From an uncultured Flavobacteriales bacterium (GTDB taxonomy: Bacteria > Bacteroidota > Bacteroidia > Flavobacteriales > Flavobacteriaceae): a DNA stretch of 64,000 nt. Made by a program: the position numbers and the translations under genes. The notes below the pieces were generated by a model, which was not told the DNA's origin, searched no databases, and was given only the letters and a program-made list of their open reading frames with translations. Below, piece by piece: positions 6,839 through 25,366 of this stretch. Numbering within the stretch: position 1 is the first letter of the stretch; the number at the start of each line of letters is the position of its first letter. Location: the NCBI GenBank assembly GCA_963976005.1, contig CAXBJF010000011.1, positions 11,276-75,275 of the forward strand. Reading direction: 5' to 3'.

Positions 6839-7465
6839 ATGAATACCACCATTGTTGTTGCCGATGATCATCCATTTATGCTAAAAGGGCTAAGTGACTT
6901 TTTGATATCAAAAGGTTTTAATGTTGTTGGTTGTGCAGAAGATGGAAAATCGGCCTATAATCTTATTGTAAAATATAAACCAGATATTGCTGTTTTAGAT
7001 ATACGAATGCCAATTTTAAGTGGTTTAGATATAGCTGAACAATGCAAAAAAAACAATATTGACACAAAAATTATTTTAATAACTTTTGATACTGACGAAG
7101 ATTTATATGAAAAAGCGTTAAAACTAGATGTTTACGGCTATATTCTTAAAGATTTTGCTATTGAAGAAATTGAAACCTGTATAGCGAATGCTTTAAAAGA
7201 CAAGCCTTATTTTAGTGATGAAATAATATCTCACCTTAAAAAGATTCCAACAAATAACCATGTTTTGGATACTCTAACAAAGACCGAACGCAAAATTATT
7301 TCATTAATAGCTGATAATAAAACAAGTCAAGAAATTGCATCAGATCTATCAGTATCCATAAAAACCATTCATAAACACAGGAGTCATATTATTTCAAAAT
7401 TAAAATTAAATAGCGGACCAACTTCTCTTTTAGTTTGGGCCAACTTAAATAAAAACAATTTTTAA
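6839..7465 (+). CDS. NarL/FixJ (LuxR-HTH) response regulator; no kinase nearby
   Basis: Receiver domain 'ADDH...LDIRMP...K' plus 'LTKTERKI...KTIHKHRSHI' HTH. Confidence 0.92.
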   Translation: MNTTIVVADDHPFMLKGLSDFLISKGFNVVGCAEDGKSAYNLIVKYKPDIAVLDIRMPILSGLDIAEQCKKNNIDTKIILITFDTDEDLYEKALKLDVYGYILKDFAIEEIETCIANALKDKPYFSDEIISHLKKIPTNNHVLDTLTKTERKIISLIADNKTSQEIASDLSVSIKTIHKHRSHIISKLKLNSGPTSLLVWANLNKNNF

Positions 7466-7927: not shown

Positions 7928-9145
7928 CTATAATTCCAGTGCTTTTTTAATATCATTATTCATTAATAATTCAATTGGGTTTTCTAACGCTTCTTTAACA
8001 GCAACCAAAAAACCAACACTTTCTTTTCCGTCAATGATTCTGTGATCATATGATAAAGCCACATACATAATTGGGCGGATTTCTACTTTTCCATTTATGG
8101 CAACGGGACGCTCAACAATATTATGCATTCCCAAAATACCACTTTGAGGAGGATTAATAATGGGCGTAGATAACATACTTCCAAAAACACCACCGTTTGA
8201 AATTGTGAAGGTTCCTCCGGTCATTTCATCAACCGTTATTTGTCCGTCACGTGCTCTAATTGCCAATCTTTTCACTTCGTTTTCAACGCCTCTAAACGTT
8301 AAATTTTCAACGTTACGCATCACGGGCACCATTAATCCTTTTGGTCCAGAAACTGCAATACTAATATCGCAAAAATCATAAGTAATCATTTCTTTTTCAT
8401 CAATCATTGAGTTTACTGTTGGATACATTTTTAAAGCTCTAACAACTGCTAATGAAAAGAAACTCATAAACCCTAATCCTACTCCGTGCTTCGTTTTAAA
8501 GTCTTCTTTATATTGATTTCGTAATGCAAAAATTGGAGACATATCAACTTCATTAAACGTTGTTAACATGGCCGTTGTGTTTTTTGCCTCAACTAATCGT
8601 TCTGCTACTTTTCGGCGTAGCATAGATAATTTTGTTCTGGTAGTTCCCCGATTTCCTCCAGTTGGAGTCCCCATGGATGGCGTTGCATTTACAGCATCAT
8701 CTTTAGTTATTCTACCCGCTTTTCCAGTACCTGTTACTTCTGAAGTTACAATGCCTTTTTCGTCTAAAATCTTTTTTGCTGCAGGGCTTGGGCTTCCTGT
8801 AGCATAGGTTTTAGCCTCCCCTAACCCCTCCGAAGGAGGGGAACTCGGACTTTGCTTCACCTCTGCAACTTTTTCTGGTTTTGAAGCTTCAGTGCCTTCT
8901 GGCTTTTCTGCGCTGGTATCAATTAAACATACCACCGCACCCACTGCTACAGCATCACCTTCTTCAGCTTTTAACGTAATGATTCCGCTTGCCTCCGCAG
9001 GAAGTTCAAGAGTTGCTTTATCACTATCTACTTCAGCAATGGGTTGGTCTTTTTCAACATAATCACCATCTTCAACCAACCATGTAGCAATTTCCACCTC
9101 TTTTATAGATTCCCCCGGAGAAGGAACTTTCATTTCTAAAATCAT
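7928..9145 (-). CDS. sucB: 2-oxoglutarate dehydrogenase E2 (dihydrolipoamide succinyltransferase)
   Basis: Lipoyl 'SDKAT', E3-binding '[12 protein letters not shown]', catalytic 'YDHRIIDG'. Confidence 0.97.
8814..8843. repeat. GC-rich hairpin repeat (family B) in-frame within the sucB linker
   Basis: GCCTCCCCTAA-CCCCTCC-GAA-GGAGGGG-AA; encodes part of '[13 protein letters not shown]'; related copy at 34072-34100. Confidence 0.7.
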
Positions 9146-9210
9146 TCTTTATGTTTTAATGTATTCTTATTTCAATTTTATTTTTTCAATGCAATGTCTT
9201 ACTTTAATTT

Positions 9211-11952
9211 TTAAATTTTCTCAAAAACCATATCAATCACACGTTGTTGTCTTCGTTTATCTCGCGTGCTAGAACCTGGTGCTGGAACAGAATTATAAGG
9301 TCTTGAAATGACTTCTAATTTCACCAAATCCATGCGTTGAGACATATGTGTCCATGCTCCCATATTTTTAGGTTCTTCTTGAGCCCAAGCATAATTTTTT
9401 ACATTGGGATAACGGTTGATGACGTGTTGTATTTTTTCAATATGTAAAGGAAATAGTTGCTCAATTCTAATTAAAGCCACATCCTCTCTGTTCAATTTTT
9501 CACGTTCTGCTAATAAATCATAATAGAATTTCCCAGTACAGAAAACCATTCTTTTAACTTTTTTCGGATTAACAGTATCGTCAATAACTTCATTGAATTG
9601 CCCCTTAACAAGGTCATTTAATGAGGATACCGCCTTTGGATGACGCAATAAACTTTTAGGTGTAAATACAATTAAAGGTTTTCTGAAATCGCGTTTCATT
9701 TGTCGTCGCAATAAATGGAAAAAGTTAGCTGGTGTGGTACAATCTGCCACAACCATATTATCATCTCCACATAATTGTAAAAAGCGTTCCATTCTGGCTG
9801 ATGAATGCTCTGAACCTTGACCTTCATAGCCGTGAGGCAACAACACCACAATTCCATTTTGAGATTTCCATTTATCTTCAGCTGCCGATAAATATTGGTC
9901 AAATATAATTTGAGCCCCATTACTAAAATCTCCAAACTGTGCTTCCCAAAGTGTTAAGGTATTTGGGTTAGCCAAAGCATACCCATAATCAAAACCAAGC
10001 ACTGCATATTCTGATAACAATGAGTTATAAATAGACATTTCACCTTTGTTAACAGGATTTAAATTCAACAAGTTTATTGTTTCTTCAGATATTTCATCAC
10101 GAAGAATAGCATGCCGGTGACTAAAAGTGCCGCGTTCCACATCCTGACCAGACATACGTACATTAAAACCTTCTTCTAACAAAGTACCGTAAGCCAATGT
10201 TTCAGCCATTCCCCAATCTAAGGCATCCGATTCAAAAACCATAGCAGCCCTACCGTCTAATATTCTTTCCGCTTTCCTAAGGAACTTAACGCCTTTTGGA
10301 ACGGTTGACACCAATTTAGCTAAATTTTCAAGTTTGTTTTTCGGATAAGAAGTGTCAACATCTTCAAGCATCTCATTAATGCCTTTTCGTTGGAAGCCTT
10401 TCCAACGTTCTTCCATAAATTCCCTTACTATCGAATTATCTTCCTTTTTGGATTTTGCATGTTCGGTTTCAAGCATGTCTTTAAATTCTTCAGAAATTTT
10501 TTCAACATATTCTTTATTGATGATTTTATCTGAAACTAATTTATCTGCATAAATACGTAACGGGTTTGGGTGTTTTGCTATTTCCTTATATAATTTAGGT
10601 TGTGTAAAACGAGGCTCATCGCCTTCATTATGCCCATATTTTCTGTACCCTAACAAGTCAATATAAACATCTTTTTTATATCGCATTCTATAGTCCAATG
10701 CCATTTCCACGGCATGTACAACGGCTTCAGCATCATCAGCATTAATATGCAATACTGGTGATAAAGTAACTTTTGCAACGTCTGTGCAATAGGTACTTGA
10801 ACGAGCGTCTAAATAATTGGTAGTAAAACCAATTTGATTATTTACAACAATATGAATAGTTCCTCCTGTTTTATAGCCTTTTAAAGTGCTCATTTGAGCT
10901 ACTTCATATACAATTCCCTGACCTGCTATGGCTGCATCACCATGTACTATAATGGGCAATATTTTTGAATCATCCCCATTATAATCATTATCAATTTTAG
11001 CACGTGTAATCCCTTCAGCTACAGATGTCACTGTTTCAAGATGTGATGGGTTTGGAACTAAATTCATTTTTAGGGTTTTTCCGTCCTGGTATGTTTTGTC
11101 AAGCGTTAAACCTAAATGATATTTTACATCACCATCAATATCTTCATCTTCAAAATCTTTGCCTTCAAACTCACTAAACAATTCTTTAATTGGCTTTCTA
11201 AAAATATTTACAAGTGTATTCAATCGTCCGCGGTGTGCCATTCCTAGAACACATTCCTTAACACCATATTTTTCAACAGCGTTAAAAAGAGCCACACTTA
11301 TTGCCGGAATTAATGTTTCCCCGCCTTCAAGAGAAAATCGTTTTTGACCAACATATTTGGTTTGCAAATAGTTCTCAAAGGTAACTGCTTGATTTAATTT
11401 TGAAAGAATGTATTTTTTTGCTGGAACTGAATAATTAGGATGATTATCATTCACATTAAGTTTATTCTGCCACCATTTAATAACCTCCGGATTCCTGATA
11501 TACATATACTCTACACCAATAGAACTACAGTATATTCTATTTAAATGAAAAACAATCTCTCTTAAGGTTTGTACACCAATACCTAAAACTTCTCCCGCAT
11601 TAAAAACGGTATCCAAATCACTTTCAGAAAGCCCAAAATTTTCTAAATCCAACGTAGGCTCATAGGTTCTTCTGGTTCTTACAGGATTCGTTCTTGTGAA
11701 TAAATGACCTCGTGTTCTATATCCATCAATAAGTTTTATGACTTGAAATTCCTTTTTAACATCTTCTGGAATTTGAGTCATTACGCCTTCAGCAATTACA
11801 CCATTTAATCCGTAATTTTCAGTGCCAAAATCATAGCCTTGAAAAAAGGCCCTCCAACTTGGTTCTACCGTATCCGGGTTTTGTAGATATTGGTCGTATA
11901 AATTGGCAAAATACGTAGTGTGTGCCGCGTTTAAAAAGGAAAATTTATCCAT
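9211..11952 (-). CDS. sucA: 2-oxoglutarate dehydrogenase E1
   Basis: 'GQKRFSLEG', 'GMAHRGRLN', TPP motif 'HGDAAIAGQG', 'WEAQFGDF'. Start placed at MDKFSFLN, because a -7 promoter element sits at the upstream ORF start. Confidence 0.97.
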   Translation of the reverse strand: MDKFSFLNAAHTTYFANLYDQYLQNPDTVEPSWRAFFQGYDFGTENYGLNGVIAEGVMTQIPEDVKKEFQVIKLIDGYRTRGHLFTRTNPVRTRRTYEPTLDLENFGLSESDLDTVFNAGEVLGIGVQTLREIVFHLNRIYCSSIGVEYMYIRNPEVIKWWQNKLNVNDNHPNYSVPAKKYILSKLNQAVTFENYLQTKYVGQKRFSLEGGETLIPAISVALFNAVEKYGVKECVLGMAHRGRLNTLVNIFRKPIKELFSEFEGKDFEDEDIDGDVKYHLGLTLDKTYQDGKTLKMNLVPNPSHLETVTSVAEGITRAKIDNDYNGDDSKILPIIVHGDAAIAGQGIVYEVAQMSTLKGYKTGGTIHIVVNNQIGFTTNYLDARSSTYCTDVAKVTLSPVLHINADDAEAVVHAVEMALDYRMRYKKDVYIDLLGYRKYGHNEGDEPRFTQPKLYKEIAKHPNPLRIYADKLVSDKIINKEYVEKISEEFKDMLETEHAKSKKEDNSIVREFMEERWKGFQRKGINEMLEDVDTSYPKNKLENLAKLVSTVPKGVKFLRKAERILDGRAAMVFESDALDWGMAETLAYGTLLEEGFNVRMSGQDVERGTFSHRHAILRDEISEETINLLNLNPVNKGEMSIYNSLLSEYAVLGFDYGYALANPNTLTLWEAQFGDFSNGAQIIFDQYLSAAEDKWKSQNGIVVLLPHGYEGQGSEHSSARMERFLQLCGDDNMVVADCTTPANFFHLLRRQMKRDFRKPLIVFTPKSLLRHPKAVSSLNDLVKGQFNEVIDDTVNPKKVKRMVFCTGKFYYDLLAEREKLNREDVALIRIEQLFPLHIEKIQHVINRYPNVKNYAWAQEEPKNMGAWTHMSQRMDLVKLEVISRPYNSVPAPGSSTRDKRRQQRVIDMVFEKI

Positions 11953-12664: not shown

Positions 12665-13096
12665 TTAAAGTGGCAAAAAAGATTCTCCCAATTTTACATT
12701 TAAACTTAAGTCTTTAATTGTTTTGTTCTTTAAGCTTTCCAATATTATATTCCTGGAGGGGCTAAGGATATGATGCAACGGACAAGGTTTTTCTTTATTA
12801 CATTTCTCTAAACTTAACATACATGAATTCAACTTTTCTTCACCATCTATAACCATAATAATGCTCATTATCGATTTTTTTAAATTCTCTTCATTTAAAT
12901 AAAACCCCCCTTTTGCACCACGAAAGGAAGACACAATATTTTCCTTAACCAAAACTTGAAGTAATTTTGCAATATATGCTTGAGGAACATTTATAGGTTC
13001 GGCAATATCCTTAACCATAATTTTGTTCTCTTTACTGGAATGTATTGCTAAAAACAAGACAGCTTTTACGGCATATTTTGAAGAATTTGAGATCAT
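12665..13096 (-). CDS. Rrf2 family transcriptional regulator (Fe-S, Cys3-His)
   Basis: wHTH '...RGAKGGFYL'; C-x6-C-x5-C-P-L-H. Confidence 0.9.
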   Translation of the reverse strand: MISNSSKYAVKAVLFLAIHSSKENKIMVKDIAEPINVPQAYIAKLLQVLVKENIVSSFRGAKGGFYLNEENLKKSIMSIIMVIDGEEKLNSCMLSLEKCNKEKPCPLHHILSPSRNIILESLKNKTIKDLSLNVKLGESFLPL

Positions 13097-13130
13097 TTAA
13101 TTATTTAATTATTATCATTCAAAATAAATG

Positions 13131-13144
13131 AGACTTTTTTATCT
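13131..13144. promoter_or_regulatory. Candidate Rrf2 operator, copy 1 (rrf2/nos divergent region)
   Basis: AGACT-TTTT-TATCT; matches three other copies. Confidence 0.55.
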
Positions 13145-13149
13145 TAAAT

Positions 13150-13193
13150 ATGATTTTTATCATGTTTTATCATTTTTTTAGCCATTATTTTTG
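13150..13193 (+). promoter_or_regulatory. nos operon promoter: FNR-like box plus Bacteroidota -7 element
   Basis: ATGAT-TTTT-ATCAT (13150-63), 22 nt, TATTTTTG (13186-93). Confidence 0.7.
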
Positions 13194-13221
13194 TACCAAA
13201 TAAACATTAATATATTTTAAC

Positions 13222-13725
13222 ATGAATTCAAGATTAAAATTTTTTACCGTTTTAATTGCTGCTATACTAATGAGTTGTGGTGGTAAAGAAGAAAAAAAGA
13301 AAGAAGGTTTTTCATATGAAAAAAAGGCTTCAACTGAAACAACAACTGTTGCCCCAACAGCTAAGGTTCCGGCATCCCAACAAATTACTTTGTCAGATAA
13401 AGGTATTGGACCAATTACCTCTATTGAATTACCCGCAGAAATTGATCAAGCTATGGTTGCCCATGGTTCAGAAATATATACAAAAATGTGTACTGCTTGC
13501 CACAGACCGGACAAAAAATTTATTGGGCCTGCACCCAAAGGCATCATGGAACGCAGATCTCCAGAATGGATCATGAACATGATTTTGAATCCGGAGGAAA
13601 TGATTCAAAAAGACCCTTTGGCCAAAGCGTTATTGGCTGAATTTAATGGCGCTCCCATGGCCAATCAAAACCTTACCCAAGAGGAGGCCAGGGCTGTATT
13701 GGAATACTTTAGAACACTAAAATAA
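13222..13725 (+). CDS. Monoheme cytochrome c lipoprotein (nos-associated)
   Basis: Lipobox LMSC; CTACH; distal Met in 'APMANQ'. Confidence 0.9.
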   Translation: MNSRLKFFTVLIAAILMSCGGKEEKKKEGFSYEKKASTETTTVAPTAKVPASQQITLSDKGIGPITSIELPAEIDQAMVAHGSEIYTKMCTACHRPDKKFIGPAPKGIMERRSPEWIMNMILNPEEMIQKDPLAKALLAEFNGAPMANQNLTQEEARAVLEYFRTLK

Positions 13726-13731
13726 CAATAT

Positions 13732-14301
13732 ATGAAAACAATCAAACATCTATTTTTTGTTTTTGCACTTTTAGCCCTGGTCGGTTCCTGCAAAAACGAA
13801 AACAAGGAAGCCTCAACAAACCCAACAGGAACTACTGAAAATGCATCCACCGATAAAACCGGTCAAGCATTTATTGAAGGCGACGTGGCCAAACCAAACG
13901 TTTTGCAAATTGCCATTGGATCGCCAGATCATACCACCTTGGTGGCTGCGGTACAAGCTGCCGGATTGGAAAACTCTTTGGTAAATGCAGGGCCATTAAT
14001 GGTATTTGCGCCTACAAATGAAGCTTTTGCTGCGCTTCCTGAAGGTACCGTGGAAAACTTATTAAAACCAGAAAACAAAGATCAATTGGCTTTAATATTG
14101 AAACACCATGTCACTCCTGGGAACTACAGCAAGGAATTTTTGAAAAAATTCAAAAAATTGGGTCAAGCAAGCAATGGCTATGTCACTGTAGAAGTGAAAG
14201 GTGACGATGTTTATGTAGGAGGGGCCAAAATTATTGCAAGCATTCCAGCCGGAAACGGAATTGTCCATGTTGTGGATAAAGTCATCCTACCAGAAAATTA
14301 A
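13732..14301 (+). CDS. Fasciclin (FAS1) domain lipoprotein
   Basis: Lipobox VGSC; 'VFAPTNEAF' and 'NGIVHVVDKVILP' FAS1 motifs. Confidence 0.9.
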   Translation: MKTIKHLFFVFALLALVGSCKNENKEASTNPTGTTENASTDKTGQAFIEGDVAKPNVLQIAIGSPDHTTLVAAVQAAGLENSLVNAGPLMVFAPTNEAFAALPEGTVENLLKPENKDQLALILKHHVTPGNYSKEFLKKFKKLGQASNGYVTVEVKGDDVYVGGAKIIASIPAGNGIVHVVDKVILPEN

Positions 14302-14326
14302 ACCATAAAAATTAACACTTATAACA

Positions 14327-16291
14327 ATGAAAAATAGATTTAAAATAACGCTCGGATTTTTGATAATGGCGACTGCATTTACCAGTTGCAATAACAAATC
14401 ATCCGATTCTAAAGGAGCATTGGCATCCAGTGCTGCTGAACAAGTATATGTTGCACCTGGGCAGCATGATGAATTTTACGCTTTTTTATCAGGGGGATTT
14501 AGCGGACAATTATCTGTCTATGGCTTACCTTCCGGTAGATTGTTTAAGGTCATTCCAGTGTTTTCACAAGATGCTGAAAAAGCCTATGGTTACAATGAAG
14601 AGACCAAGCCTATGTTAATGACTTCCTTTGGGGAAATTCCTTGGGGAGATGCCCACCACCCCGATATTTCACAAACCAATGGGATATTGGATGGCCGTTG
14701 GGTTTTTATAAACGAAAACAATACACCACGTATTGCTAGAATCGATCTTACTACTTTTGAAACCACTGAGATAATAGAAATTCCAAACTCTGCTGGTAAC
14801 CACAGTTCTTCTTATGTTACAGACAACACAGAATATGTAATTGCTGGAACACGTTTTAGCGTACCTGTACCACAACGAGATATGCCAATCAAGGACTATA
14901 AGGGCAATTTTAAAGGCGCTTTGTCCTTTCTTAAAGTAGATCCTGATAGTGGACAAATGGACTTATCGTTTCAGATATTAATGCCAGGGTTTGATTATGA
15001 CAAAGCCCATCCGGGACGGGGAAAATCACATGGCTGGTTTTTCTATACAACCTATAACACCGAAGAGGCCAATACGTTGTTGGAAGTGAATGCCTCGCAA
15101 AATGACAAGGATTTTATCGCAGCTGTTAACTGGAAAAAAGCAGAAGAGTATATCAAAGAAGGTAAATTTAAAACCATGCCCGCTAAATATGCACACAATA
15201 TGTATAATGATGAAACCCATTCTGCTTCAACAACCTGGGGAACTTCTGTAAAAGTGTTGGATCCTGCCGAACTTCCTGGGCTGGTTTATTTTTTACCAAC
15301 CCCTAAATCACCTCATGGTTGTGACGTTGATCCTACTGGCGAATATATTGTTGGTAGTGGTAAATTAGCAGCTAGTCTAACTGTGCATTCTTTTACAAAA
15401 ATGATTGATGCCATTGAAAACAAGAAGTTTGCTGGTGAAGCTTACGGTATTCCAATTCTTAACTTTGACGACGTATTGGCTGGAACTGTTGAGCAACCAG
15501 GGTTAGGCCCTTTACATACCGAATTTGACAATAAAGGAAATGCCTATTCAACATTTTTCATTTCTTCTGAAATTGTAAAATGGAAACTGGGAACTTGGGA
15601 AGTATTGGATAGACAACCTGCATTTTATTCTCCTGGACATTTAATGATTCCTGGAGGTAACTCTCAACAACCCTTTGGTAAGTATTTGCTTTCCATGAAT
15701 AAAATAACAAAAGACCGTTATTTGCCAACAGGACCGGAAGTAAGCCAATCCGCTCAATTATTTGATATTTCTGGAGACAAGATGAAACTGCTATTGGATT
15801 TCCCAACAGTTGGAGAACCTCACTATGCGGCCGGAATCCCTGCTAATCTAGTGGCTCCAAAGTCCAAGAAAATTTTCAAATTGGAAGAAAATAAGCATCC
15901 TTTTGCAACTCTCAACGATGCAGATGCCAAAGTAGTTAGAGATGGAAATAATGTACATGTTTATATTACGACCATTAGAAGCCATTTTAATCCTGATAAT
16001 ATTGAAGGCGTTAAAGTAGGCGATAAAGTATTTTTCCATGTCACCAATATGGAACAAGATTACGATGTGCCCCATGGAATGAGCATGATAGGTGCAAACA
16101 CATCAGAAGTACTTGTTATGCCAGGACAGACCGAAACTTTTGTTTGGGAGCCCAAACAAGTTGGTGTATGGCCATTTTATTGTACCGATTTCTGTTCGGC
16201 ACTGCATCAAGAAATGCAAGGCTATGTTCGTGTATCAGCTGCAAACGCCAATACCCCTTTAAAGTGGTCTTTGGGTGAAGATATAGAATAG
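14327..16291 (+). CDS. nosZ: Sec-dependent (clade II) nitrous oxide reductase
   Basis: CuZ His motifs DAHHP, GNHSS, SPHG, GPLHT and EPHY; CuA 'HG...CTDFCSALHQEM'; lipobox FTSC; no Tat RR motif. Confidence 0.97.
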   Translation: MKNRFKITLGFLIMATAFTSCNNKSSDSKGALASSAAEQVYVAPGQHDEFYAFLSGGFSGQLSVYGLPSGRLFKVIPVFSQDAEKAYGYNEETKPMLMTSFGEIPWGDAHHPDISQTNGILDGRWVFINENNTPRIARIDLTTFETTEIIEIPNSAGNHSSSYVTDNTEYVIAGTRFSVPVPQRDMPIKDYKGNFKGALSFLKVDPDSGQMDLSFQILMPGFDYDKAHPGRGKSHGWFFYTTYNTEEANTLLEVNASQNDKDFIAAVNWKKAEEYIKEGKFKTMPAKYAHNMYNDETHSASTTWGTSVKVLDPAELPGLVYFLPTPKSPHGCDVDPTGEYIVGSGKLAASLTVHSFTKMIDAIENKKFAGEAYGIPILNFDDVLAGTVEQPGLGPLHTEFDNKGNAYSTFFISSEIVKWKLGTWEVLDRQPAFYSPGHLMIPGGNSQQPFGKYLLSMNKITKDRYLPTGPEVSQSAQLFDISGDKMKLLLDFPTVGEPHYAAGIPANLVAPKSKKIFKLEENKHPFATLNDADAKVVRDGNNVHVYITTIRSHFNPDNIEGVKVGDKVFFHVTNMEQDYDVPHGMSMIGANTSEVLVMPGQTETFVWEPKQVGVWPFYCTDFCSALHQEMQGYVRVSAANANTPLKWSLGEDIE

Positions 16292-16296
16292 TAAAT

Positions 16297-16364
16297 TAGG
16301 AAAATTTTGTTTTAGTGTTTATTTTCCTATAAAGGCGAGAGTTGAGTTTTTCGCTCTCGCCTTT
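16297..16364 (+). terminator. Tandem hairpins between nosZ and nosB
   Basis: TAGGAAAAT..ATTTTCCTA (9 bp), then AAAGGCGAGAG..CTCTCGCCTTT (11 bp). Confidence 0.65.
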
Positions 16365-16402
16365 CCTTTTAAAATACTAATATTAATTTTAATTGTTTTC
16401 AG

Positions 16403-17002
16403 ATGAAAAAGTCAAATGTTATCATGCTTATTGCCGCTTTATTGCCACTTGGATTATTCTTTTTTCCTCTTTGGAAAATAACGCTTGAAGCTCCTCAATA
16501 TCCAACGCCATTAGGTATGTATATTTTTATTAATGATTTTTCAGATGTAAACCCCAATGATATCAAGAACATCAACCTGATGAACCATTATGTGGGGATG
16601 AAATACATTCCTGAGGCAATTCCGGAATTCAAGATTTTTCCATTGGGAATCATCATTACTACTATTATCGGGTTAATTATCGCATTTAAAGGCAATTACA
16701 AATGGTTTTTGGCCTGGTTTATTTTAATGATTGTTTTAAGTGCTGCGGGACTATATGATTTTTATCTGTGGGAACATCATTACGGAAATGATTTGGATCC
16801 CAAAGCGATCATAAAATTTACGAATCCAGATGGTACGGTCATGGGTTTTCAACCACCATTATTTGGTTCAAAAGATATTCTTAACTTTAAAGCACATTCT
16901 TATCCAAGATTAGGCGCGTACTTTTTAGGATTAGGCATTGCCACCTCATTATTGGCCTATTTTGTTGGAAAGAAAAGTCATAAAAAAAAGGTTGCTTTGT
17001 AA
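16403..17002 (+). CDS. nosB: NosB-type membrane protein of clade II nos clusters
   Basis: 'W...LEAPQYP..L', 'INLMNHYVGM' and 'FQPPLFG.K' motifs; 4 TM; directly after nosZ. Confidence 0.8.
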   Translation: MKKSNVIMLIAALLPLGLFFFPLWKITLEAPQYPTPLGMYIFINDFSDVNPNDIKNINLMNHYVGMKYIPEAIPEFKIFPLGIIITTIIGLIIAFKGNYKWFLAWFILMIVLSAAGLYDFYLWEHHYGNDLDPKAIIKFTNPDGTVMGFQPPLFGSKDILNFKAHSYPRLGAYFLGLGIATSLLAYFVGKKSHKKKVAL

Positions 17003-17024
17003 AAAATAGGACTCAAAAACGAGT

Positions 17025-17462
17025 ATGAAAACATTAAAACACTTTGCCATAATAGCATTGCTGGTATTACTATGCAGTTGCAATGCATCACCACAAGCCA
17101 TTAACTATGGTGCTGACGGGTGTCAATTTTGCAAAATGACCATAGTAGATAAGGTTCATGCTGCAGAAATAGTTACTAAAAAAGGAAAGGTTTATAAGTT
17201 TGATGCTACAGAGTGTATGATTAATTTCTTAAAAGGTTTTGATGTTACAGAAATTAAACTCTATTTAACAAATCATTACACGGAACCTGAAACCTTAATT
17301 GATGCTAATCAAGCTACTTTTTTAATTAGTGAAAATATCCCAAGCCCAATGGGTGCTTATTTAACGGCATTTAAAAACAAAAAGGTTGCAGAGGAAATTC
17401 AAGCTAAACAAGGTGGAGCATTATATACTTGGAGCGAACTTTTAATGCATCAAAAAAAATAA
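17025..17462 (+). CDS. nosL: NosL copper chaperone lipoprotein
   Basis: Lipobox; 'CQFCKM', 'FDATEC' and 'SPMG' motifs. Confidence 0.92.
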   Translation: MKTLKHFAIIALLVLLCSCNASPQAINYGADGCQFCKMTIVDKVHAAEIVTKKGKVYKFDATECMINFLKGFDVTEIKLYLTNHYTEPETLIDANQATFLISENIPSPMGAYLTAFKNKKVAEEIQAKQGGALYTWSELLMHQKK

Positions 17463-17538
17463 ATAACATCATCTATTTATTAAATTCAACCAATAAAAAA
17501 ATCAATCCTTATTTTTGGAGTAAATCTAACGTATTGAA

Positions 17539-18783
17539 ATGTGCCGTTTATTGAAACATAGCGTCTTAATTATTTCAGCTTTAATAAGTTGTTCTGTATT
17601 TTCGCAAACCATTAATGTTTGTGAAACATGTACAATTTCAACCTTAAAAGAAGCTATTGCAGCCGCTAAAGATTTTGATACCATTGTTATAAAAAAAGGC
17701 ACTTATAAAGAACATGATATTTTAGTTGATAAACCATTAACCATTTTAGGCGAAAATTACCCTGTTATTGATGGTGAGTTAAAAGGTGAAATTATTACTA
17801 TAGTTTCAGATAATGTAACTATTGATGGGCTGCACATCATTAATGTTGGCACCAGTTATACTTCTGATTATGCTGCCATTAGGGTTAGAAGAAGTAAAAA
17901 TTTCGTCATTAAAAATCTGGTGCTAGAGAAATTATTCTTTGGTATTTATATAGAAAAATCCAGTTACGGAAAAGTTTTTCATAACAAAATAATTGGTGAT
18001 GCAGTGCAAGAATACAATTCCGGGAACGGTATCCAATTATGGTACAGCAACCATATTCAAATTGAGCAAAATATTGTTGAACATGTAAGAGATGGCATCT
18101 ATTTGGAATTTTCTGATGATTGCCTAATAAAGAATAATGTGAGCCAACAAAATCTTCGATATGGTTTACATTTTATGTTTTCCAATAACGACATTTATCA
18201 AAATAATACCTTTGAAAATAACGGTGCCGGTGTTGCTGTTATGTTTTCAAAAAAAATTAAAATGCTTCACAACACATTTAAAAAAAATTGGGGAACAGCC
18301 TCGTATGGCATGCTCTTAAAAGAAATCAATGATGCTGAAATTATAGGCAATACGTTTGAAGAAAACACCATAGGCATCAATATTGAAGGTTCCAACAGAA
18401 TTACGTATAAAAACAACAGTTTCATCAATAACGGATGGGCCATTAAAGTAAGAGGAGCCTGTTATACTAACCACTTTTTAGAAAATAATTTTTTATATAA
18501 TTCTTTTGATATTTCATATAATAGCAACATCAATGATAATGTGTTCAACAAAAATTACTGGAGTAATTATACCGGGTACGATTTAGATAAAAATGGCATA
18601 GGTGATGTACCGTACAGACCTGTGAAATTATTCTCGTACATTGTAAACAGAACTCCTGAAACCATCATTTTACTGCGTAGTTTATTCATTGATATTATAG
18701 ATTTTTCTGAAAAAGTATCTCCTGTTTTTACACCTGATAATCTGTTTGACAATCATCCTTTAATAAAAAAAATAATATGGTAA
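17539..18783 (+). CDS. nosD: NosD nitrous oxide reductase maturation protein
   Basis: Beta-helix repeats 'RDGIY', 'RYGLHFMFS'; 'NYWSNY.GYDL...GIGD.PY'. Confidence 0.95.
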   Translation: MCRLLKHSVLIISALISCSVFSQTINVCETCTISTLKEAIAAAKDFDTIVIKKGTYKEHDILVDKPLTILGENYPVIDGELKGEIITIVSDNVTIDGLHIINVGTSYTSDYAAIRVRRSKNFVIKNLVLEKLFFGIYIEKSSYGKVFHNKIIGDAVQEYNSGNGIQLWYSNHIQIEQNIVEHVRDGIYLEFSDDCLIKNNVSQQNLRYGLHFMFSNNDIYQNNTFENNGAGVAVMFSKKIKMLHNTFKKNWGTASYGMLLKEINDAEIIGNTFEENTIGINIEGSNRITYKNNSFINNGWAIKVRGACYTNHFLENNFLYNSFDISYNSNINDNVFNKNYWSNYTGYDLDKNGIGDVPYRPVKLFSYIVNRTPETIILLRSLFIDIIDFSEKVSPVFTPDNLFDNHPLIKKIIW

Positions 18784-19484
18784 GCATTCAAAATTTACAT
18801 AAAAAATTTGGAAAAAACGTAGTGCTTAGCGGCGTAAATCTTGATATTAAAGAAGGTGGCATTTTTGCAGTACTTGGGCCGAATGGGTCAGGCAAAACAA
18901 CCTTGATTAAATCTATATTAGGCATGGTTATTCCTAACGAAGGAGACATTTCTATTTTAGGAAAAAACATTAAAAAAAGTTCTGATTACCGCTATAAAAT
19001 TGATTATTTACCGCAAATAGCCAACTTTCCAAACAACCTTAAGGTTAAAGAACTCATCACCATGATTAAGGATTTAAGAGGAAAAAAAATCAATGATGAA
19101 GCTCTAATTAGTTTATTTAAATTAGAAGCTTTTTTAGATAAAAAACTTGGCAATCTTTCAGGAGGTACCAAGCAAAAAGTAAATATTGTGTTGGCCTTTA
19201 TGTTTGACAGCCCTTTGATTATTTTAGACGAACCTACATCTGGTTTGGATCCCATTTCATTGATTCGTTTAAAGGATTTGATTCAAACTGAAAAAGCGAA
19301 AGGAAAAACCATTTTGATCACCTCTCATATCATGAGTTTTGTTGAAGAGGTTTCTGATGAAATTGTTTTTCTTTTAGAAGGACAAATTTATTTTAAAGGC
19401 TCCATTAATGAACTTAAAACCAAGACGAACCAACCAGATTTTGAACGCGCTATTGCCTCTATACTAACAGATAACCATGCTTAA
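18777..19484 (+). CDS. nosF: ABC ATPase NosF
   Basis: Walker A GPNGSGKT, LSGG signature, Walker B ILDEP; nos context. Confidence 0.92.
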   Translation: MVSIQNLHKKFGKNVVLSGVNLDIKEGGIFAVLGPNGSGKTTLIKSILGMVIPNEGDISILGKNIKKSSDYRYKIDYLPQIANFPNNLKVKELITMIKDLRGKKINDEALISLFKLEAFLDKKLGNLSGGTKQKVNIVLAFMFDSPLIILDEPTSGLDPISLIRLKDLIQTEKAKGKTILITSHIMSFVEEVSDEIVFLLEGQIYFKGSINELKTKTNQPDFERAIASILTDNHA

Positions 19485-20259
19485 AATATTAAAATACAGT
19501 TTTTACGATTTAATGCGCAGCAGATGGAGTTACATTTACTTTGCGTTTTATTTACTGCTTGGTGTGGTATTATTGTTTTTAAACAATGATTTATCCAAAG
19601 CAGTCATCACGTTAATGAACGTTATTATTGTTTTAGTGCCTTTAATCGGCACCATTTTTGGCGTCATGTACTATTACAATTCCAAAGAATTTACAGAACT
19701 CTTGTTGGCACAGCCTTTAAAACGCTCTTCCATATTTTTAGGACAATATTTAGGAGTTGCCATATCGTTGTCCATGAGTTTAATTTTAGGTTTAGGTATC
19801 CCATTTATATTTTATGGCTTATTTAAAAGTAATGCGATTTGGGATTTTTCATTGCTACTAACAACCGGAACATTTCTTACCTTTATTTTTACTGCATTAG
19901 CATTCAATATTGCTTTATCCAATGAAAATAAAATTAAAGGCTTTGGTTATGCCATTTTGTTATGGTTGTTTTTAGCCATTATTTACGACGGTATTTTTTT
20001 AATGTCGTTAATCCTTTTTGAAGATTATCCTTTAGATAAATTATCACTGGTTGGCACTATGTTAAATCCTATAGACTTGTCAAGAACACTCATCTTACTT
20101 AAATTAGACATATCTGCTTTATTAGGTTATACCGGAGCCGTTTTTAAACAATTCTTCGGAACCAATTTTGGCCTAATTATTTCCTTCTTTATGTTAATCT
20201 TATGGGTGGTTTTTCCAGTTTTAAGGATTTCTTATAAATCAAAAAGAAAAGACTTTTGA
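19477..20259 (+). CDS. nosY: ABC permease NosY
   Basis: 6-TM protein with 'ELLLAQPLKR' and 'NPID'; overlaps the nosF end. Confidence 0.9.
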   Translation: MLKILKYSFYDLMRSRWSYIYFAFYLLLGVVLLFLNNDLSKAVITLMNVIIVLVPLIGTIFGVMYYYNSKEFTELLLAQPLKRSSIFLGQYLGVAISLSMSLILGLGIPFIFYGLFKSNAIWDFSLLLTTGTFLTFIFTALAFNIALSNENKIKGFGYAILLWLFLAIIYDGIFLMSLILFEDYPLDKLSLVGTMLNPIDLSRTLILLKLDISALLGYTGAVFKQFFGTNFGLIISFFMLILWVVFPVLRISYKSKRKDF

Positions 20260-20284
20260 TTTCTATTTCATGATTAAGTTATTT

Positions 20285-20449
20285 TAACGTGAATAATGTT
20301 TAAGTGTTATGATGACACTTTGATTTAAATTCTGGAAGAATTTAGTGTCGAGAAGTCTTTTATGGTAAGTAATTTACTTGTTTTCGATACACCAAATCAC
20401 AGATTTGGCACTCTAACTGACATAAATTCCTTATCCATTATTCACGTTA
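20285..20449. repeat. MITE/REP-like element (family C) between nosY and the nirK promoter
   Basis: Perfect 14-bp TIR TAACGTGAATAATG / CATTATTCACGTTA with internal hairpins (AAGTGTTA/TGACACTT; CCAAATC/GATTTGG). Confidence 0.65.
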
Positions 20450-20462
20450 TTTTAAATAAAAC

Positions 20463-20506
20463 CTGATAAAAGTCATATTTTAAAATAATCTTAACCATTA
20501 TTTTTG
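20463..20506 (+). promoter_or_regulatory. nirK operon promoter: FNR-like box plus -7 element
   Basis: CTGAT-AAAA-GTCAT (20463-76), 22 nt, TATTTTTG (20499-506); same geometry as the nos promoter. Confidence 0.7.
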
Positions 20507-20519
20507 GTTCCTATAAAAA

Positions 20520-20533
20520 GGACATAAATGTCT
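20520..20533. promoter_or_regulatory. Candidate Rrf2 operator, copy 2 (just downstream of the nirK -7 element)
   Basis: GGACA-TAAA-TGTCT within AAAGGACATAAATGTCTTTT. Confidence 0.6.
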
Positions 20534-20587: not shown

Positions 20588-22039
20588 ATGAAACAATTTA
20601 AATTATCCCAGGTTATTTTAGCCTCTTTTGTGCTATTAATAACGTCATGTATTAACAATAAAGAAAAGGTATATGAAAATTCGGCCGACATTCCTGTAAG
20701 CAGGGAAATGACAGCAGAATTAACATCCCCGCCAAATGTTCCAACACCTGTTGGGAGAAGAAAAGCAAAAAAACTAATGGTCAGTATGGAAATTCTAGAA
20801 AAAGAAGGCACCATGACTGATGGAACAACATACAACTATTGGACTTTTGGCGGTTCTGTTCCTGGAAGTTTTATCCGTACAAGAGTTGGTGATGAAGTAG
20901 AATTTACGCTATCAAATCATCCAGACAATAAATTACCTCATAATATTGATTTACATGCGGTAACAGGTCCAGGTGGTGGAGCTACTTCTTCATTTGTAGC
21001 CCCAGGGCATAGTAAAACATTCAGCTTTAAAACATTAAATCCAGGCATATACGTTTACCATTGTGCTACTGCACCTGTTGGAATGCACATTGCAAATGGG
21101 ATGTATGGTTTGATTTTGGTTGAACCAGAAGGTGGTTTACCTCCTGTTGACAAAGAATATTACATTATGCAGGGTGATTTTTACACTAAAGGTAAAACTG
21201 GAGACCCGGGCTTACAAGCCTTTGATATGCAGAAAGCGGTTGATGAAAAACCAGACTATGTGGTTTTTAATGGAAAAATGGGCTCACTAACTGGTGATAA
21301 TGCTCTCACCGCCAATGTTGGAGAAACTATAAGATTATTTGTAGGAAACGGAGGCCCTAATTTAGTATCCTCTTTCCATGTTATTGGCGAAATTTTTGAT
21401 AAAGTCCATGTTGAAGGAGGTTCAACCATTAATGAAAATGTACAAACTACATTAATTCCTGCTGGAGGAGCAGCTATTGTTGAGTTTAGGGTAGATGTTC
21501 CCGGTACATTTATTTTAGTGGATCATTCTATTTTTAGAGCCTTTAACAAAGGAGCTTTAGGGATGCTAAAAGTTTCTGGCGAAGAGAATAAAACCATTTA
21601 TGCAGGGGTTGTTCAAGAAGGCATTTATCATCCAGAAGGAGGAACCATTCAAACCATGCCAAATAACGGAAAAGCTAACGTTGAAGAATCAACATCTGAG
21701 AAAAGTTTAGCTGAAAAAATGGAATCCGGAAAGAAAATTTTTATGCAAACCTGCTTTGCGTGTCATCAAGCTGAAGGCCAAGGAATACCAAATGCCTTTC
21801 CACCATTAGCAAAATCAGATTATCTAAATGCCGACGTAAATCGTGCTATTGGTATTGTACTAAAAGGTAAAACAGGTGAAATTACTGTAAATGGCGCAAA
21901 ATACAATAGTGTTATGACCGCACAGTCTATAAGCAACTCTGAAATTGCCGATGTGTTGACTTATGTATATAATTCCTGGGGAAATAACAAAACCAATGTA
22001 ACTACATCTCAGGTAGATAAAGTTAGGAGTGGTAAATAA
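20588..22039 (+). CDS. nirK: Copper nitrite reductase with C-terminal cytochrome c; lipoprotein
   Basis: HNIDLH, YHC...MH...GM, SSFHVIG and VDH copper/catalytic motifs; CFACH heme motif; lipobox ITSC. Confidence 0.96.
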   Translation: MKQFKLSQVILASFVLLITSCINNKEKVYENSADIPVSREMTAELTSPPNVPTPVGRRKAKKLMVSMEILEKEGTMTDGTTYNYWTFGGSVPGSFIRTRVGDEVEFTLSNHPDNKLPHNIDLHAVTGPGGGATSSFVAPGHSKTFSFKTLNPGIYVYHCATAPVGMHIANGMYGLILVEPEGGLPPVDKEYYIMQGDFYTKGKTGDPGLQAFDMQKAVDEKPDYVVFNGKMGSLTGDNALTANVGETIRLFVGNGGPNLVSSFHVIGEIFDKVHVEGGSTINENVQTTLIPAGGAAIVEFRVDVPGTFILVDHSIFRAFNKGALGMLKVSGEENKTIYAGVVQEGIYHPEGGTIQTMPNNGKANVEESTSEKSLAEKMESGKKIFMQTCFACHQAEGQGIPNAFPPLAKSDYLNADVNRAIGIVLKGKTGEITVNGAKYNSVMTAQSISNSEIADVLTYVYNSWGNNKTNVTTSQVDKVRSGK

Positions 22040-22053
22040 TCAACGGAACTAAA

Positions 22054-22824
22054 ATGGGACTTATTTTAAGGTTGACAATTTGTATAATAATACTTAATGT
22101 AAGTTTTGCATTTTGTCAATCTAAAATGGTTTCTATTAAAGGTGGTTCATACATACCCCTTTATGGTAGAGATTCATTAAAAGTAACCATATCAGATTTT
22201 GAAATGGATGTGTATCCAGTAACAAACCAAGAGTTTTTAGAATTTGTTAAACAACATCCTACATGGCAACGTTCACAAATAAAAAAACTGTTTGCAGATA
22301 ATAGCTACTTAATTAATTGGAAATCGGATACAGAATTAAATGATTCCCAACTTTTAAAAGCACCTATAACAAATATATCTTGGTTTGTAGCCAAAGATTA
22401 CTGTGAATGTCAAGGTAAGCGTTTGCCAACTATTGATGAATGGGAATATGTAGCAATGGCAAACAAAACAGTAGCTGATGCCCGAAAACTAGAATCTTAT
22501 AACAAATTTATTTTAGGATGGTATGAAAAACCTAAAACATTTAATAATGAGATAGGGTCAACCTTCAAAAATTATTGGCATGTATATGATTTACATGGCT
22601 TGGTTTGGGAATGGACTTTAGATTTTAATTCCGTTTTATTGTCTGGAGAATCTAGGAAAGATGTAGATAAAGACACTGATTTATTCTGCGGAAGTGCTGC
22701 GATTGGGGCTACAGATTTAATGAATTATGCGGCATTTATGCGTTATGCCATTCGAGGAAGTTTAAAAGCAAAATATTCAATGAAAAACCTTGGTTTTAGA
22801 TGTGTTAAAGATATTATCAATTAA
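22054..22824 (+). CDS. FGE-sulfatase domain (NirV-like) protein
   Basis: 'PVT.QEF', 'KRLPTIDEWEY', 'DLHGLVWEW' and 'GFRC' motifs; directly after nirK. Confidence 0.85.
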   Translation: MGLILRLTICIIILNVSFAFCQSKMVSIKGGSYIPLYGRDSLKVTISDFEMDVYPVTNQEFLEFVKQHPTWQRSQIKKLFADNSYLINWKSDTELNDSQLLKAPITNISWFVAKDYCECQGKRLPTIDEWEYVAMANKTVADARKLESYNKFILGWYEKPKTFNNEIGSTFKNYWHVYDLHGLVWEWTLDFNSVLLSGESRKDVDKDTDLFCGSAAIGATDLMNYAAFMRYAIRGSLKAKYSMKNLGFRCVKDIIN

Positions 22825-22828
22825 AAAA

Positions 22829-23563
22829 ATGAATAAAGTGAAATCGATTTTAATAGTATTGCTATGCTTTGTAGCATTGACGTCATGTAAAAACGACAAA
22901 TCAAACTCGGCTATCACTGAACAGGTTGTTTATCAATGCCCTATGAAATGCGAAGGCAAAAAAACCTATAACCATTCAGGAAATTGTCCTGTTTGTAATA
23001 TGGATTTAAAACGTATTGATGAACAATCTTCAAAAGTTATTGATACCAATACTATTTCTGAAGAATCTATTTTCAACTTAACATCAAAATGGAACACAGA
23101 AGAAGGTGAAACCATTCAGCTTTCAGAATTAAAAGGAAAAACCTTAGTAATGGTTATGATTTACACTTCATGCAGATCTGCCTGCCCACGGTTAGTGGCC
23201 GATATGAGAAACATTGAATCTCAAATTCCTAAAAGCAACCTTGAAAATATTCGTTTTGTGTTAATAAGCATTGATCCAAAAACAGATACACCAAAACGCC
23301 TAAAGGAATTCGCCATAGAAAATCAAATGGATGGCAAACAATGGACCTTTTTACAAGGTACGGAAAGTAGTGTGCGCGAATTTGCCAATGTACTAGCCGT
23401 AAAATACAAACAAATTTCCCCTATGGATTTTTCACATTCAAACATGATAAGTGTGTTTAATTCAAAAGGCGAATTAATACATCAACAAGAAGGTTTAGGA
23501 GTAGATCATAAAGAAACCGTTAAAACAATCTTTGAATTATCAAATAATTGGAATATTAATTAA
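22829..23563 (+). CDS. SCO/SenC copper chaperone lipoprotein with an N-terminal Cys-rich metal-binding domain
   Basis: Lipobox LTSC; 'YQCPMKC...CPVCNMDL'; SCO motif 'YTSCRSACP' and 'FSHS'. Confidence 0.88.
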   Translation: MNKVKSILIVLLCFVALTSCKNDKSNSAITEQVVYQCPMKCEGKKTYNHSGNCPVCNMDLKRIDEQSSKVIDTNTISEESIFNLTSKWNTEEGETIQLSELKGKTLVMVMIYTSCRSACPRLVADMRNIESQIPKSNLENIRFVLISIDPKTDTPKRLKEFAIENQMDGKQWTFLQGTESSVREFANVLAVKYKQISPMDFSHSNMISVFNSKGELIHQQEGLGVDHKETVKTIFELSNNWNIN

Positions 23564-23575
23564 AACTAAATAAAT

Positions 23576-24010
23576 ATGTTATCAAAAAAACAAGCACGTG
23601 CCTTTTTCCTTGGCGGAACGCTAGTTACATTTCTCGTATTTATTGGACTTACCATTTACTCATTTAGTAAAGCACAAGACCAATCAAATGATGACGAAAT
23701 AACGGAAGCTGTTGTAAGGGGAAAGAAAATTTGGGAAGCTAACAATTGTATGGGTTGTCATACACTTTTAGGCGAAGGAGGTTATTACGCTCCAGAATTA
23801 ACTAAAGTAATTGACCGAAGAGGGGAAGGTTACGTTAAAGCCGTATTAATGACCCCGATATCTTGGGAGCCTAACGGAAGGAAAATGGTGGCCTATGGTT
23901 TCTCGAAAGAAGAAGCCGAAGATTTGATTGCCTTTTTCGATTGGATAGGTCATATTGATTTAAATGGTTTTGACACCGTTGTATCACCATTAGCCAAAGA
24001 TAAAAACTAA
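23576..24010 (+). CDS. norC: Nitric oxide reductase cytochrome c subunit
   Basis: N-terminal TM, 'CMGCH..LGEGGYYAPELT'; directly before norB. Confidence 0.92.
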   Translation: MLSKKQARAFFLGGTLVTFLVFIGLTIYSFSKAQDQSNDDEITEAVVRGKKIWEANNCMGCHTLLGEGGYYAPELTKVIDRRGEGYVKAVLMTPISWEPNGRKMVAYGFSKEEAEDLIAFFDWIGHIDLNGFDTVVSPLAKDKN

Positions 24011-24022
24011 AAAATAAAACAA

Positions 24023-25366
24023 ATGAAATATAAATCACAAAAAGTAGCGTACTGGTTTTTTGCCCTTTCCATGTTGTTGTTCGGGCTACAATTGGTCTAT
24101 GGGTTCATCATGGGATTTGCTCATGCAGGTTTTGATGGGTTGCATGAAATTATTCCTTTTAATACGGCAAAAGCAGTACACCTCAACCTTTTGGTTGTTT
24201 GGCTATTGTCGGGTTTTATGGGTGCAGCATATTATATTATTCCTGAAGAAGCACAACGCGAATTGGTAAACGTAAAACTCGCTTATGTGCAATTGATTAG
24301 TTTAGCCTTAGTTGGTGTTATAGCCATTGTAGGTTTTCACTTTAATATTTGGGAAGGACGAAAATTTTTAGAAATCCCACGAGGACTTGATTATTTGGTT
24401 GTTGCCAACGTACTTCTGTTTTTGGGCTTAATTTTATTAACTTTATATAAAGGAAAACGTAGAACCACTACGGCATTAGTGCTTTCCATGGGGCTTTTAT
24501 TTGCAGCCTTATTGTATTTACCGGGGATGCTTCCGTTTGACAGTCAGGTAAAAGATTCCTTTTTTAGATGGTGGGTTGTTCATTTATGGGTAGAAGGTGT
24601 TTGGGAATTAATCATGGGAGGTATTCTGTCTTTCTTATTGATAAAACTTACAGGTGTTGACAGGGAAGTTATTGAAAAATGGCTGTATGTTATTGTTGGG
24701 TTAACTTTCTTATCTGGTGTGTTAGGTACAGGCCACCATTACTATTATATTGGTGTTAATAAAATTTGGCTGATTGTTGGCGGCATTTTCTCTGCTCTTG
24801 AGCCTTTGGCCTTTTTGGCAATGGCATTATTTGCTGTTAATATGTACAGAAAAGGAGAAAAGAAACACCCCAACAAATTGGCTTTATACTGGACACTTGG
24901 CGCTGCCATCGTCTCTTTTATAGGGGCGGGATTATTGGGATTTGCACACACATTACCACAAACCAATATTTATACCCACGGCACTTTAGTTACCGCCATG
25001 CATGGTCACCTTGCATTTTGGGGCGCTTATGCCATGATAGTTTTAGCCATCATTAGCTATAGCTTGCCCAATATGACAGGCAGAAAATTATATGAAAGCA
25101 CCAGAGGTCTAGCTGCTTTCTGGCTATCCAATATTGGCATGATAGGTATGACCGTGGCTTTTGGGGTTGCTGGAGTTGCTCAAGTGTATTTAGAGCGCAA
25201 AATGAAAATGGAATTTATGGCAGTTCAAAAAGAAATTGAGGTTCATTTTTATGTATTGATTATTTGCGCAACCCTATTTGTTACTGGCATTATCCTATAC
25301 ATGATAGATTTTTATAAGCACGGTAAACCAACCGATGAAGCTTTGGAACCATCACCTAATAAGTAA
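24023..25366 (+). CDS. norB: Nitric oxide reductase catalytic subunit (cNOR)
   Basis: VHLN, VVHLWVEG, GHHYY, LEP and HGH ligand motifs; 447 aa with no qNOR N-terminal extension. Confidence 0.96.
   Translation: MKYKSQKVAYWFFALSMLLFGLQLVYGFIMGFAHAGFDGLHEIIPFNTAKAVHLNLLVVWLLSGFMGAAYYIIPEEAQRELVNVKLAYVQLISLALVGVIAIVGFHFNIWEGRKFLEIPRGLDYLVVANVLLFLGLILLTLYKGKRRTTTALVLSMGLLFAALLYLPGMLPFDSQVKDSFFRWWVVHLWVEGVWELIMGGILSFLLIKLTGVDREVIEKWLYVIVGLTFLSGVLGTGHHYYYIGVNKIWLIVGGIFSALEPLAFLAMALFAVNMYRKGEKKHPNKLALYWTLGAAIVSFIGAGLLGFAHTLPQTNIYTHGTLVTAMHGHLAFWGAYAMIVLAIISYSLPNMTGRKLYESTRGLAAFWLSNIGMIGMTVAFGVAGVAQVYLERKMKMEFMAVQKEIEVHFYVLIICATLFVTGIILYMIDFYKHGKPTDEALEPSPNK

Follow-up and report, generated by a model that had tools for sequence, protein, structure and literature searches.

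We analysed a 64,000-nt stretch of DNA from an uncultured Flavobacteriales bacterium (contig CAXBJF010000011.1, positions 11,276 to 75,275; hereafter the window), in which the promoters of the nos and nirK operons share a composite element, a Crp/Fnr-type inverted repeat followed after exactly 22 nt by a Bacteroidota −7 element. The same box at the same spacing recurs in independent nos loci, and the two boxes of the window are very probably real Crp/Fnr-type activator sites, as judged from their sequence and its conservation. In the mechanism that we propose, to which we assign as a whole a probability of about 0.7, the box would be bound by a response regulator consisting of a receiver domain fused to a Crp/Fnr body (REC-Crp), controlled by a haem kinase, and the operator of an Rrf2-family protein would be overlaid at the two operons.

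In the window, the composite pattern TGAT-N4-RTCAT-N22-TAnnTTTG matched twice, once before each operon, and in 100 dinucleotide shuffles of the window it did not match at all. The sites and the operons that they precede are:

13150-13163, shared by both strands: activator box 1, ATGATTTTTATCAT, a perfect 14-bp palindrome ATGAT-TTTT-ATCAT, serving nos (+) and the divergent Rrf2-family gene Rrf2_A (−)
13186-13193, + strand: nos −7 element, TATTTTTG, 22 nt 3' of box 1
13222-20259, + strand: nos operon (cytochrome c, fasciclin lipoprotein, clade II nosZ, a 199-aa protein, nosL, nosD, nosF, nosY)
20463-20476, + strand: activator box 2, CTGATAAAAGTCAT, CTGAT-AAAA-GTCAT, 5' of nirK
20499-20506, + strand: nirK −7 element, TATTTTTG, 22 nt 3' of box 2
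20588-25366, + strand: nirK operon (nirK-cytochrome c fusion, FGE-sulfatase-like (NirV-like) gene, SCO1/SenC, norC, norB)

The nos composite lies 28 nt from the first gene of its operon, and the nirK composite 81 nt from the nirK-cytochrome c fusion. An earlier reading of the letters alone (the sequence-only reading) had described this identical arrangement at both operons, with spacers that begin with N-TTTTA and finish with TTA(G/A)CCAT, and had assigned the genes to nos and nirK; direct reading of the sequence bore out the arrangement and the spacers, and the gene assignments are right as well. The bare box TGAT-N4-RTCA was not enriched by itself (9 in the window versus 4.9 expected). A relaxed scan returned one additional promoter-like composite, namely the nos palindrome on the minus strand with TTATTTTG 23 nt off, before the Rrf2 gene. 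The TTARCCAT at the end of both spacers (13178-13185 and 20491-20498), directly 5' of TATTTTTG, is a similarity peculiar to the window; it was rejected as a second functional element because it is conserved in no related locus, and it could reflect either promoter duplication or a lineage-specific element. A marine metatranscriptome contig of 208 nt was identical to positions 14153-14360 and covers the fasciclin/nosZ junction, consistent with in-situ expression and co-transcription of the nos operon.

Since the pattern had been defined after the fact, it was tested on independent DNA, for which the NosZ protein served as the query for 80 Bacteroidota nos loci (1.49 Mb in total, at 69-92% identity). 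Every distance from 0 to 60 nt between TGAY-N4-RTCA and TAnnTTTG was scored (23 nt counted from TCA equals 22 nt counted from TCAT). A spacing of 23 nt was found in 66 cases and every other distance in at most 9 each, and control boxes, scrambled or re-spaced, gave at most 2 at any spacing. With at most one mismatch, the composite stood 5' of nosZ on the nos strand in 53 of the 76 loci with sufficient upstream sequence; for the subset with matched controls, it was present at 38/61 nos loci versus 1-2/61 in coding or downstream regions or shuffles. Composites with two mismatches were dropped as evidence, having occurred at the background rate in real and control regions alike (8-11/61). Because the loci bearing the composite span Flavobacteriaceae, Saprospiraceae, Cytophagales and others, the element is, by its sequence, phylum-wide in Bacteroidota. 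Only three other fetched loci, all from Aquimarina, contain nirK, and all three have ATGAT-N4-ATCAT, 24 nt and then TATTTTTA upstream of it. The divergent arrangement seen between nos and Rrf2_A, with one palindrome and −7 elements 23-24 nt to each side, is strictly kept in 7 other loci; such symmetric spacing would fit a symmetric dimer.

The spacing histogram rises a second time at 45-46 nt, which is accounted for by loci, mainly of Saprospiraceae and Cytophagales, with another box placed 22 bp (centre to centre) upstream of the first. Such tandem sites, at about −41.5 and −63.5, stand in L011, L061, L071, L077, L079 and L080 (Saprospiraceae, Cytophagales, Cyclobacteriaceae), before nos, ccoI, Rrf2 and other genes. 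In one Flavobacteriaceae locus (L027, 9350-9440), a short Crp/Fnr gene stops just before the nos box and the sole good −7 element is 39 nt off instead of 23 nt; this promoter is either rearranged or uses a weaker −7 element.

A logo built from 68 strict sites reads A-TGAY-wwwT-RTCA-T and then ATTTt; past a spacer that shows no conservation come TAnnTTTG and, 5 nt after its G, a position enriched in A. Both half-sites are conserved symmetrically as a 5-4-5 inverted repeat with a TGA-N6-TCA core, which both sites of the window match. The sequence-only reading had compared the box with the E. coli FNR site TTGAT-N4-ATCAA, and this comparison had to be amended: the box is here ATGAT-N4-ATCAT, the outer flank being A in 50/68 sites and T in only 4/68. 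The −33 position carries TTTT instead of the Bacteroidota TTTG, and this degeneracy is suggestive of the weak element that would be expected at an activator-dependent promoter. In Flavobacterium psychrophilum, mapped transcription start sites place TAnnTTTG at −12 to −5 (PMC9723704). By the same register, the A located 5 nt past the G of the −7 element is likely +1, which predicts starts at A13198 for nos and at about 20511 for nirK, at most 1 nt from the 13199 and 20512 predicted earlier. Because the −7 element would occupy −12 to −5 and A is enriched 5 nt past its G, the box centre would fall at about −41.5, the position of a class II activator. The suggestion of a class-II-like Crp/Fnr-type site at both operons is supported to this extent, as a dimer box that would lie at about −41.5 from the predicted start with a rigid 23-nt spacing. 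In the proposed mechanism, a dimeric Crp/Fnr-type activator would bind both boxes at sigma-A promoters (TAnnTTTG at −7, degenerate −33) and would recruit RNA polymerase in the class II manner.

To list the genes that such promoters would control, the nearest gene 3' of every strict composite was taken throughout the fetched loci. Tandem-domain Usp genes (70) and nos operons (41) were the most frequent, followed by ribosome hibernation factor (HPF; 8), Rrf2 (7), a TerB-like 135-aa protein (6), HemN (4) and an MlaE-like permease (3). CcoI/FixI ATPase, DnaJ/CbpA-like proteins and LytTR regulators were found twice each, and thioredoxins, OsmC, nitroreductase, NorC-like cytochrome and NirK in smaller numbers. 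The expectation that the composite would also occur at hemN and at cbb3-maturation genes was confirmed in relatives (hemN four times, ccoI/fixI twice). To judge from these genes, the target set looks like a low-oxygen or dormancy-type (hypoxia) regulon, and we propose that the box marks such a regulon conserved in Bacteroidota, which would comprise Usp, the hibernation factor, hemN, ccoI/fixI, thioredoxins, nos and nirK.

The sequence-only reading had placed the gene of the activator elsewhere, and the window indeed holds no Crp/Fnr gene. Among the 80 nos loci, Crp-family genes are of two kinds, a REC-Crp fusion of about 350 aa with the architecture Response_reg-cNMP_binding-HTH_Crp_2, and a short Crp/Fnr of about 200 aa. 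The REC-Crp family is very large (of 8,000 candidates scored, 7,999 reached E ≤ 1e-20), and its members go by no more specific name in the sources than 'response regulator'. In Aequorivita, the REC-Crp gene is translationally coupled to that of a PAS-HisKA-HATPase kinase, and 7 intergenic boxes occur within 21 kb (before the kinase, hpf-usp, five usp promoters and nos). A second set of 80 metagenome loci was fetched with the REC-Crp protein (43-75% identity, 1.0 Mb). It contained 101 strict composites, compared with 0 in 20 shuffles. An exact box was located within about 150 nt past the REC-Crp stop codon in 67/77 metagenomic loci, with boxes again at the next usp promoters, and in about 23 loci a box stood just 5' of the kinase gene, which suggests autoregulation. 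The PAS domain of the kinase (taken from locus L081) matched only haem-PAS oxygen sensors (RmFixL with E = 4e-15, DosP and BjFixL), with the proximal His aligned; the window itself contains no gene for a kinase of this type. In addition, a metagenome-assembled genome (MAG) whose NosZ is 80% identical to that of the window has the kinase/REC-Crp pair and nosZ on one contig, about 20 kb apart. In L081 and L170 (11100-16000), five to six tandem-domain Usp genes, several with a box of their own, directly follow the kinase/REC-Crp pair, and a boxed hpf-usp pair lies about 5 kb upstream; the set resembles the mycobacterial DosR dormancy regulon.

In FNR, a Glu and an Arg of the recognition helix read the G of TGAT, and Ser212 contacts the outer T. 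Both Crp kinds have E--IR in this helix where FNR has E--SR, and an E--IR helix is consistent with a TGAT core with a changed flank. Alignment with FNR also showed that the N-terminal Cys cluster is absent from both, the short Crp/Fnr having none and the 350-aa proteins carrying the receiver domain instead. Owing to the linkage and to the haem-PAS match, a classical oxygen-labile Fe-S FNR appears less likely as the regulator than a REC-cNMP-HTH_Crp protein under a FixL-like kinase. The activator would accordingly be a REC-cNMP_binding-HTH_Crp_2 response regulator encoded outside the window, and its phosphorylation would be due to a soluble kinase that is transcribed together with it and has a haem-PAS domain of the FixL/DosP type; that it is the REC-Crp fusion in this particular genome is somewhat better than an even bet. 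It was ranked above the short Crp/Fnr because its linkage to the boxes is tight and widespread. In one locus labelled as non-Bacteroidota (L039), a TTGAT-N4-ATCA box is found about 614 nt 5' of nosZ together with a Crp/Fnr gene (8634-9338) encoding an E--SR helix. This pairing is a single, anecdotal case of co-variation, in contrast to the ATGAT and E--IR of Bacteroidota.

Besides the activator box, a second palindrome, RGAY-N6-RTCY, was found at both operons of the window, together with two Rrf2 genes:

12665-13096, − strand: Rrf2_A, Rrf2-family regulator, divergent from nos, with three Cys (C92-x6-C99-x5-C105)
13120-13127, − strand: −7-like element of Rrf2_A, TTATTTTG (one mismatch), 23 nt from box 1
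13131-13144, no strand assigned: second palindrome at nos, AGAC-TTTTTT-ATCT, probable Rrf2/NsrR-type operator
20520-20533, no strand assigned: second palindrome at nirK, GGAC-ATAAAT-GTCT, just 3' of the −7 element, probable Rrf2/NsrR-type operator
34173-34607: second Rrf2 gene, adjoining a ScdA/hemerythrin gene

In other loci, RGAY-N6-RTCY was present in 27/41 nos promoters, even in those with no divergent Rrf2 gene, starting 19-20 nt 5' of the box (28-29 nt in three fasciclin-led promoters), and in the spacer of 5/7 Rrf2 promoters, whereas it occurred in none of the 67 usp, 8 hpf and 4 hemN promoters. An AAGAC-N6-GTCTT stands at the place equivalent to that of the nirK palindrome in the three Aquimarina nirK promoters. 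Both Rrf2 proteins of the window retain three Cys (C-x6-C-x5-C), and RGAY-N6-RTCY is probably the operator of an iron-sulfur (Fe-S) Rrf2 encoded beside nos. The centre of the nos palindrome is 19 bp from the box centre; relative to the predicted starts, it falls at about −60.5 on the nos side and at about −22.5 on the Rrf2_A side, and the centre of the nirK palindrome falls at about +15.5.

The sequence-only reading had proposed one AND gate for both operons, in which low oxygen acts through the activator and nitric oxide (NO) releases the Rrf2 repressor. The two promoters differ in geometry, so that this uniform gate is only partly supported: at nirK, the palindrome stands just 3' of the −7 element, in a classical repression position, and is kept in Aquimarina, and at nos the probable operator is 5' of the box, in a non-occluding position. 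In our mechanism, RGAY-N6-RTCY would be overlaid at N-oxide promoters and bound by an Fe-S Rrf2, with oxygen and NO as the inferred signals. At nirK, the operator would overlap the transcript start, and control by the hypoxia activator AND NOT Rrf2 is well supported by this architecture. At nos, the operator would abut the box upstream, within the core of the Rrf2 gene's own promoter, leading to autoregulation of that gene, and an AND gate is here only plausible. Since an operator at about −60.5 would not occlude the promoter, repression would need to block or counteract the adjacent activator; the operator could thus serve anti-activation, or even co-activation from a class-I-like position, and its fixed location would be more in keeping with an interplay between the Rrf2 protein and the activator than with simple occlusion.

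Several explanations other than binding by REC-Crp were weighed. A chance likeness between AT-rich promoters, or a promoter duplication of which the two sites are remnants, with no regulatory role in either case, might be considered on the ground that the pattern was set after both sites had been seen and that the TTARCCAT common to both spacers could hint at duplication. The lack of any match in 100 shuffles and the identical box and spacing in independent genomes with unrelated spacers leave practically no room for this explanation, which conservation effectively refutes. Binding of the box by a nearby regulator of another family is scarcely more credible. The candidates would be the adjacent Rrf2_A, which is divergent from nos and has the palindrome region in common with it, and a REC-GerE (NarL/FixJ-type) response regulator encoded at 6839-7465, 5.7 kb from nos, LuxR-type dimers being generally able to activate from about −42. 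However, 67 usp, 8 hpf and 4 hemN promoters carry the box with neither an Rrf2-type palindrome nor a nearby Rrf2 gene, it is the separate palindrome RGAY-N6-RTCY that tracks Rrf2 genes, and the TGA-N6-TCA core is a Crp/Fnr signature. REC-GerE was also rejected as a general box-binding protein, being syntenic in only 2/80 nos loci (L001 and L031).

The more serious alternative to REC-Crp, which we regard as unlikely, is that a short stand-alone Crp/Fnr (about 200 aa, with no N-terminal Cys cluster) binds the nos and nirK boxes instead of or alongside it, possibly in response to NO or N2O like Dnr and NnrR; in Pseudomonas, Anr and Dnr share FNR-type boxes. Such genes are found in or beside the nos clusters of L027, L029, L035 and L069, with Myroides and Salegentibacter among the genera that have them, the helix of their products is likewise E--IR and could bind an identical box, and the loci that have them keep the box 5' of nos. 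On the other hand, they occur within 10 kb in only 4-5/80 nos loci and nowhere in the window, and they leave unexplained the dense usp and hpf boxes around the REC-Crp gene. In some genomes, the short Crp/Fnr may act on the same box as a further regulator specific to nos. Further points count against control by REC-Crp or narrow what can be read from the counts. In addition to the window itself, the 10 kb past either end of it contain no such regulator and only housekeeping genes, and 13/76 nos loci show no composite whatever. The link between regulator and box is one of association, and a usp gene beside the regulator could answer to another factor. The loci were picked by similarity to NosZ or to the regulator, so that the list of targets is not genome-wide, and public RNA for the window amounts to the single 208-nt contig inside the nos operon, the other matching runs being metagenomic DNA.

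With these points taken into account, control by REC-Crp was compared with known systems. E. coli class II FNR and CRP promoters have in common with those described here the 5-4-5 repeat with a TGA-N6-TCA core, a rigid distance to the core promoter, a centre at about −41.5 (here a predicted one) and a weak upstream element, and the E. coli FNR regulon likewise includes anaerobic respiration, hemN and the maturation genes of a high-affinity oxidase. The differences are the flank (here A/T, not T/A), the Bacteroidota −33/−7 type of promoter, and, in the candidate proteins, Ile at the Ser212 position and the lack of N-terminal Fe-S cysteines. The FixL-FixJ-FixK system of rhizobia and Caulobacter resembles the arrangement in the relatives of our bacterium in that a FixL-type haem-PAS kinase is linked to a Crp/Fnr-type output, and FixK also targets cbb3 maturation, hemN and denitrification genes through TTGA-N6-TCAA-like boxes; here, however, there would be no FixJ (LuxR-type) intermediate, the receiver being fused to the Crp/Fnr body so that two tiers would be united in one protein. 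At the Neisseria aniA (nirK) promoter, FNR activates and NsrR, an Rrf2-family protein, represses (PMC1802743; Isabella et al. 2009, as cited in a metagenomic study, PMC6264515). The likeness lies in a nirK promoter with an FNR-type site and an overlapping Rrf2-family operator giving low-oxygen AND NO logic, whereas phylum, promoter type and box sequences are different, and the nos Rrf2-type palindrome is here upstream of the box at a fixed offset of 19 bp. Mycobacterium DosS/DosT-DosR also combines a haem kinase with a response regulator over Usp, hibernation factor and anaerobic respiration genes, but the output of DosR is LuxR-type and its kinases are GAF-haem proteins, so that the likeness is functional only.

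In Proteobacteria, the control of nir, nor and nos by FNR, Dnr and FixK through boxes at −41.5 is textbook knowledge (PMC1274295). For other phyla, the metagenomic study mentioned above noted only that clade II nos clusters have Rrf2 genes as neighbours and that little is known of regulation outside Proteobacteria (PMC6264515), and a study of the CRP/FNR meta-regulon reported no evidence that CRP/FNR proteins control denitrification in MAGs of Flavobacteriales or Saprospiraceae (PMC8510549). We found no published account of the box or of the REC-Crp regulator in Bacteroidota, in a search outside which most subscription journals lay, so that this absence is no proof. What the promoters probably represent is a form of class II Crp/Fnr-type activation fitted to the promoters of Bacteroidota, in which the activator would be a receiver-Crp fusion controlled by a haem kinase. 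A bolder version, which we hold only tentatively and give slightly less than an even chance, would see in this a hitherto unstudied master hypoxia switch of Bacteroidota, where a FixL-like haem kinase phosphorylates the receiver-Crp/Fnr fusion, which binds ATGAY-N4-RTCAT at −41.5 and directly activates clade II nosZ and nirK, and where an Fe-S Rrf2 docked 19 bp off (about −60.5) at N-oxide promoters constitutes a new architecture of anti-activation or co-activation. As sinks of N2O, Bacteroidota that carry clade II NosZ are important in the ocean, in soil and in wastewater, and Cloacibacterium has already been applied against farmland N2O emissions (PMC11168931). A cis-element of exact geometry, a candidate kinase/regulator pair and a predicted regulon make the question of oxygen sensing and nos switching directly testable, and a defined box allows the potential for nos expression to be predicted from genome sequence.

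Two minor observations were made in the fetched loci. Strict-box promoters beside the nos clusters of L046 (13669), L054 (7899) and L037 (4745) drive small membrane proteins of 113-131 aa, in which the motif C-x(7-10)-C-x-G-K-C-x-L is conserved and which match no Pfam family. The closest NosZ relative of the window (L001, 92% identity) is on a 14-kb contig binned as 'Chlorobiota bacterium', the genes and promoters of which are flavobacterial, and this contig is probably mis-binned.

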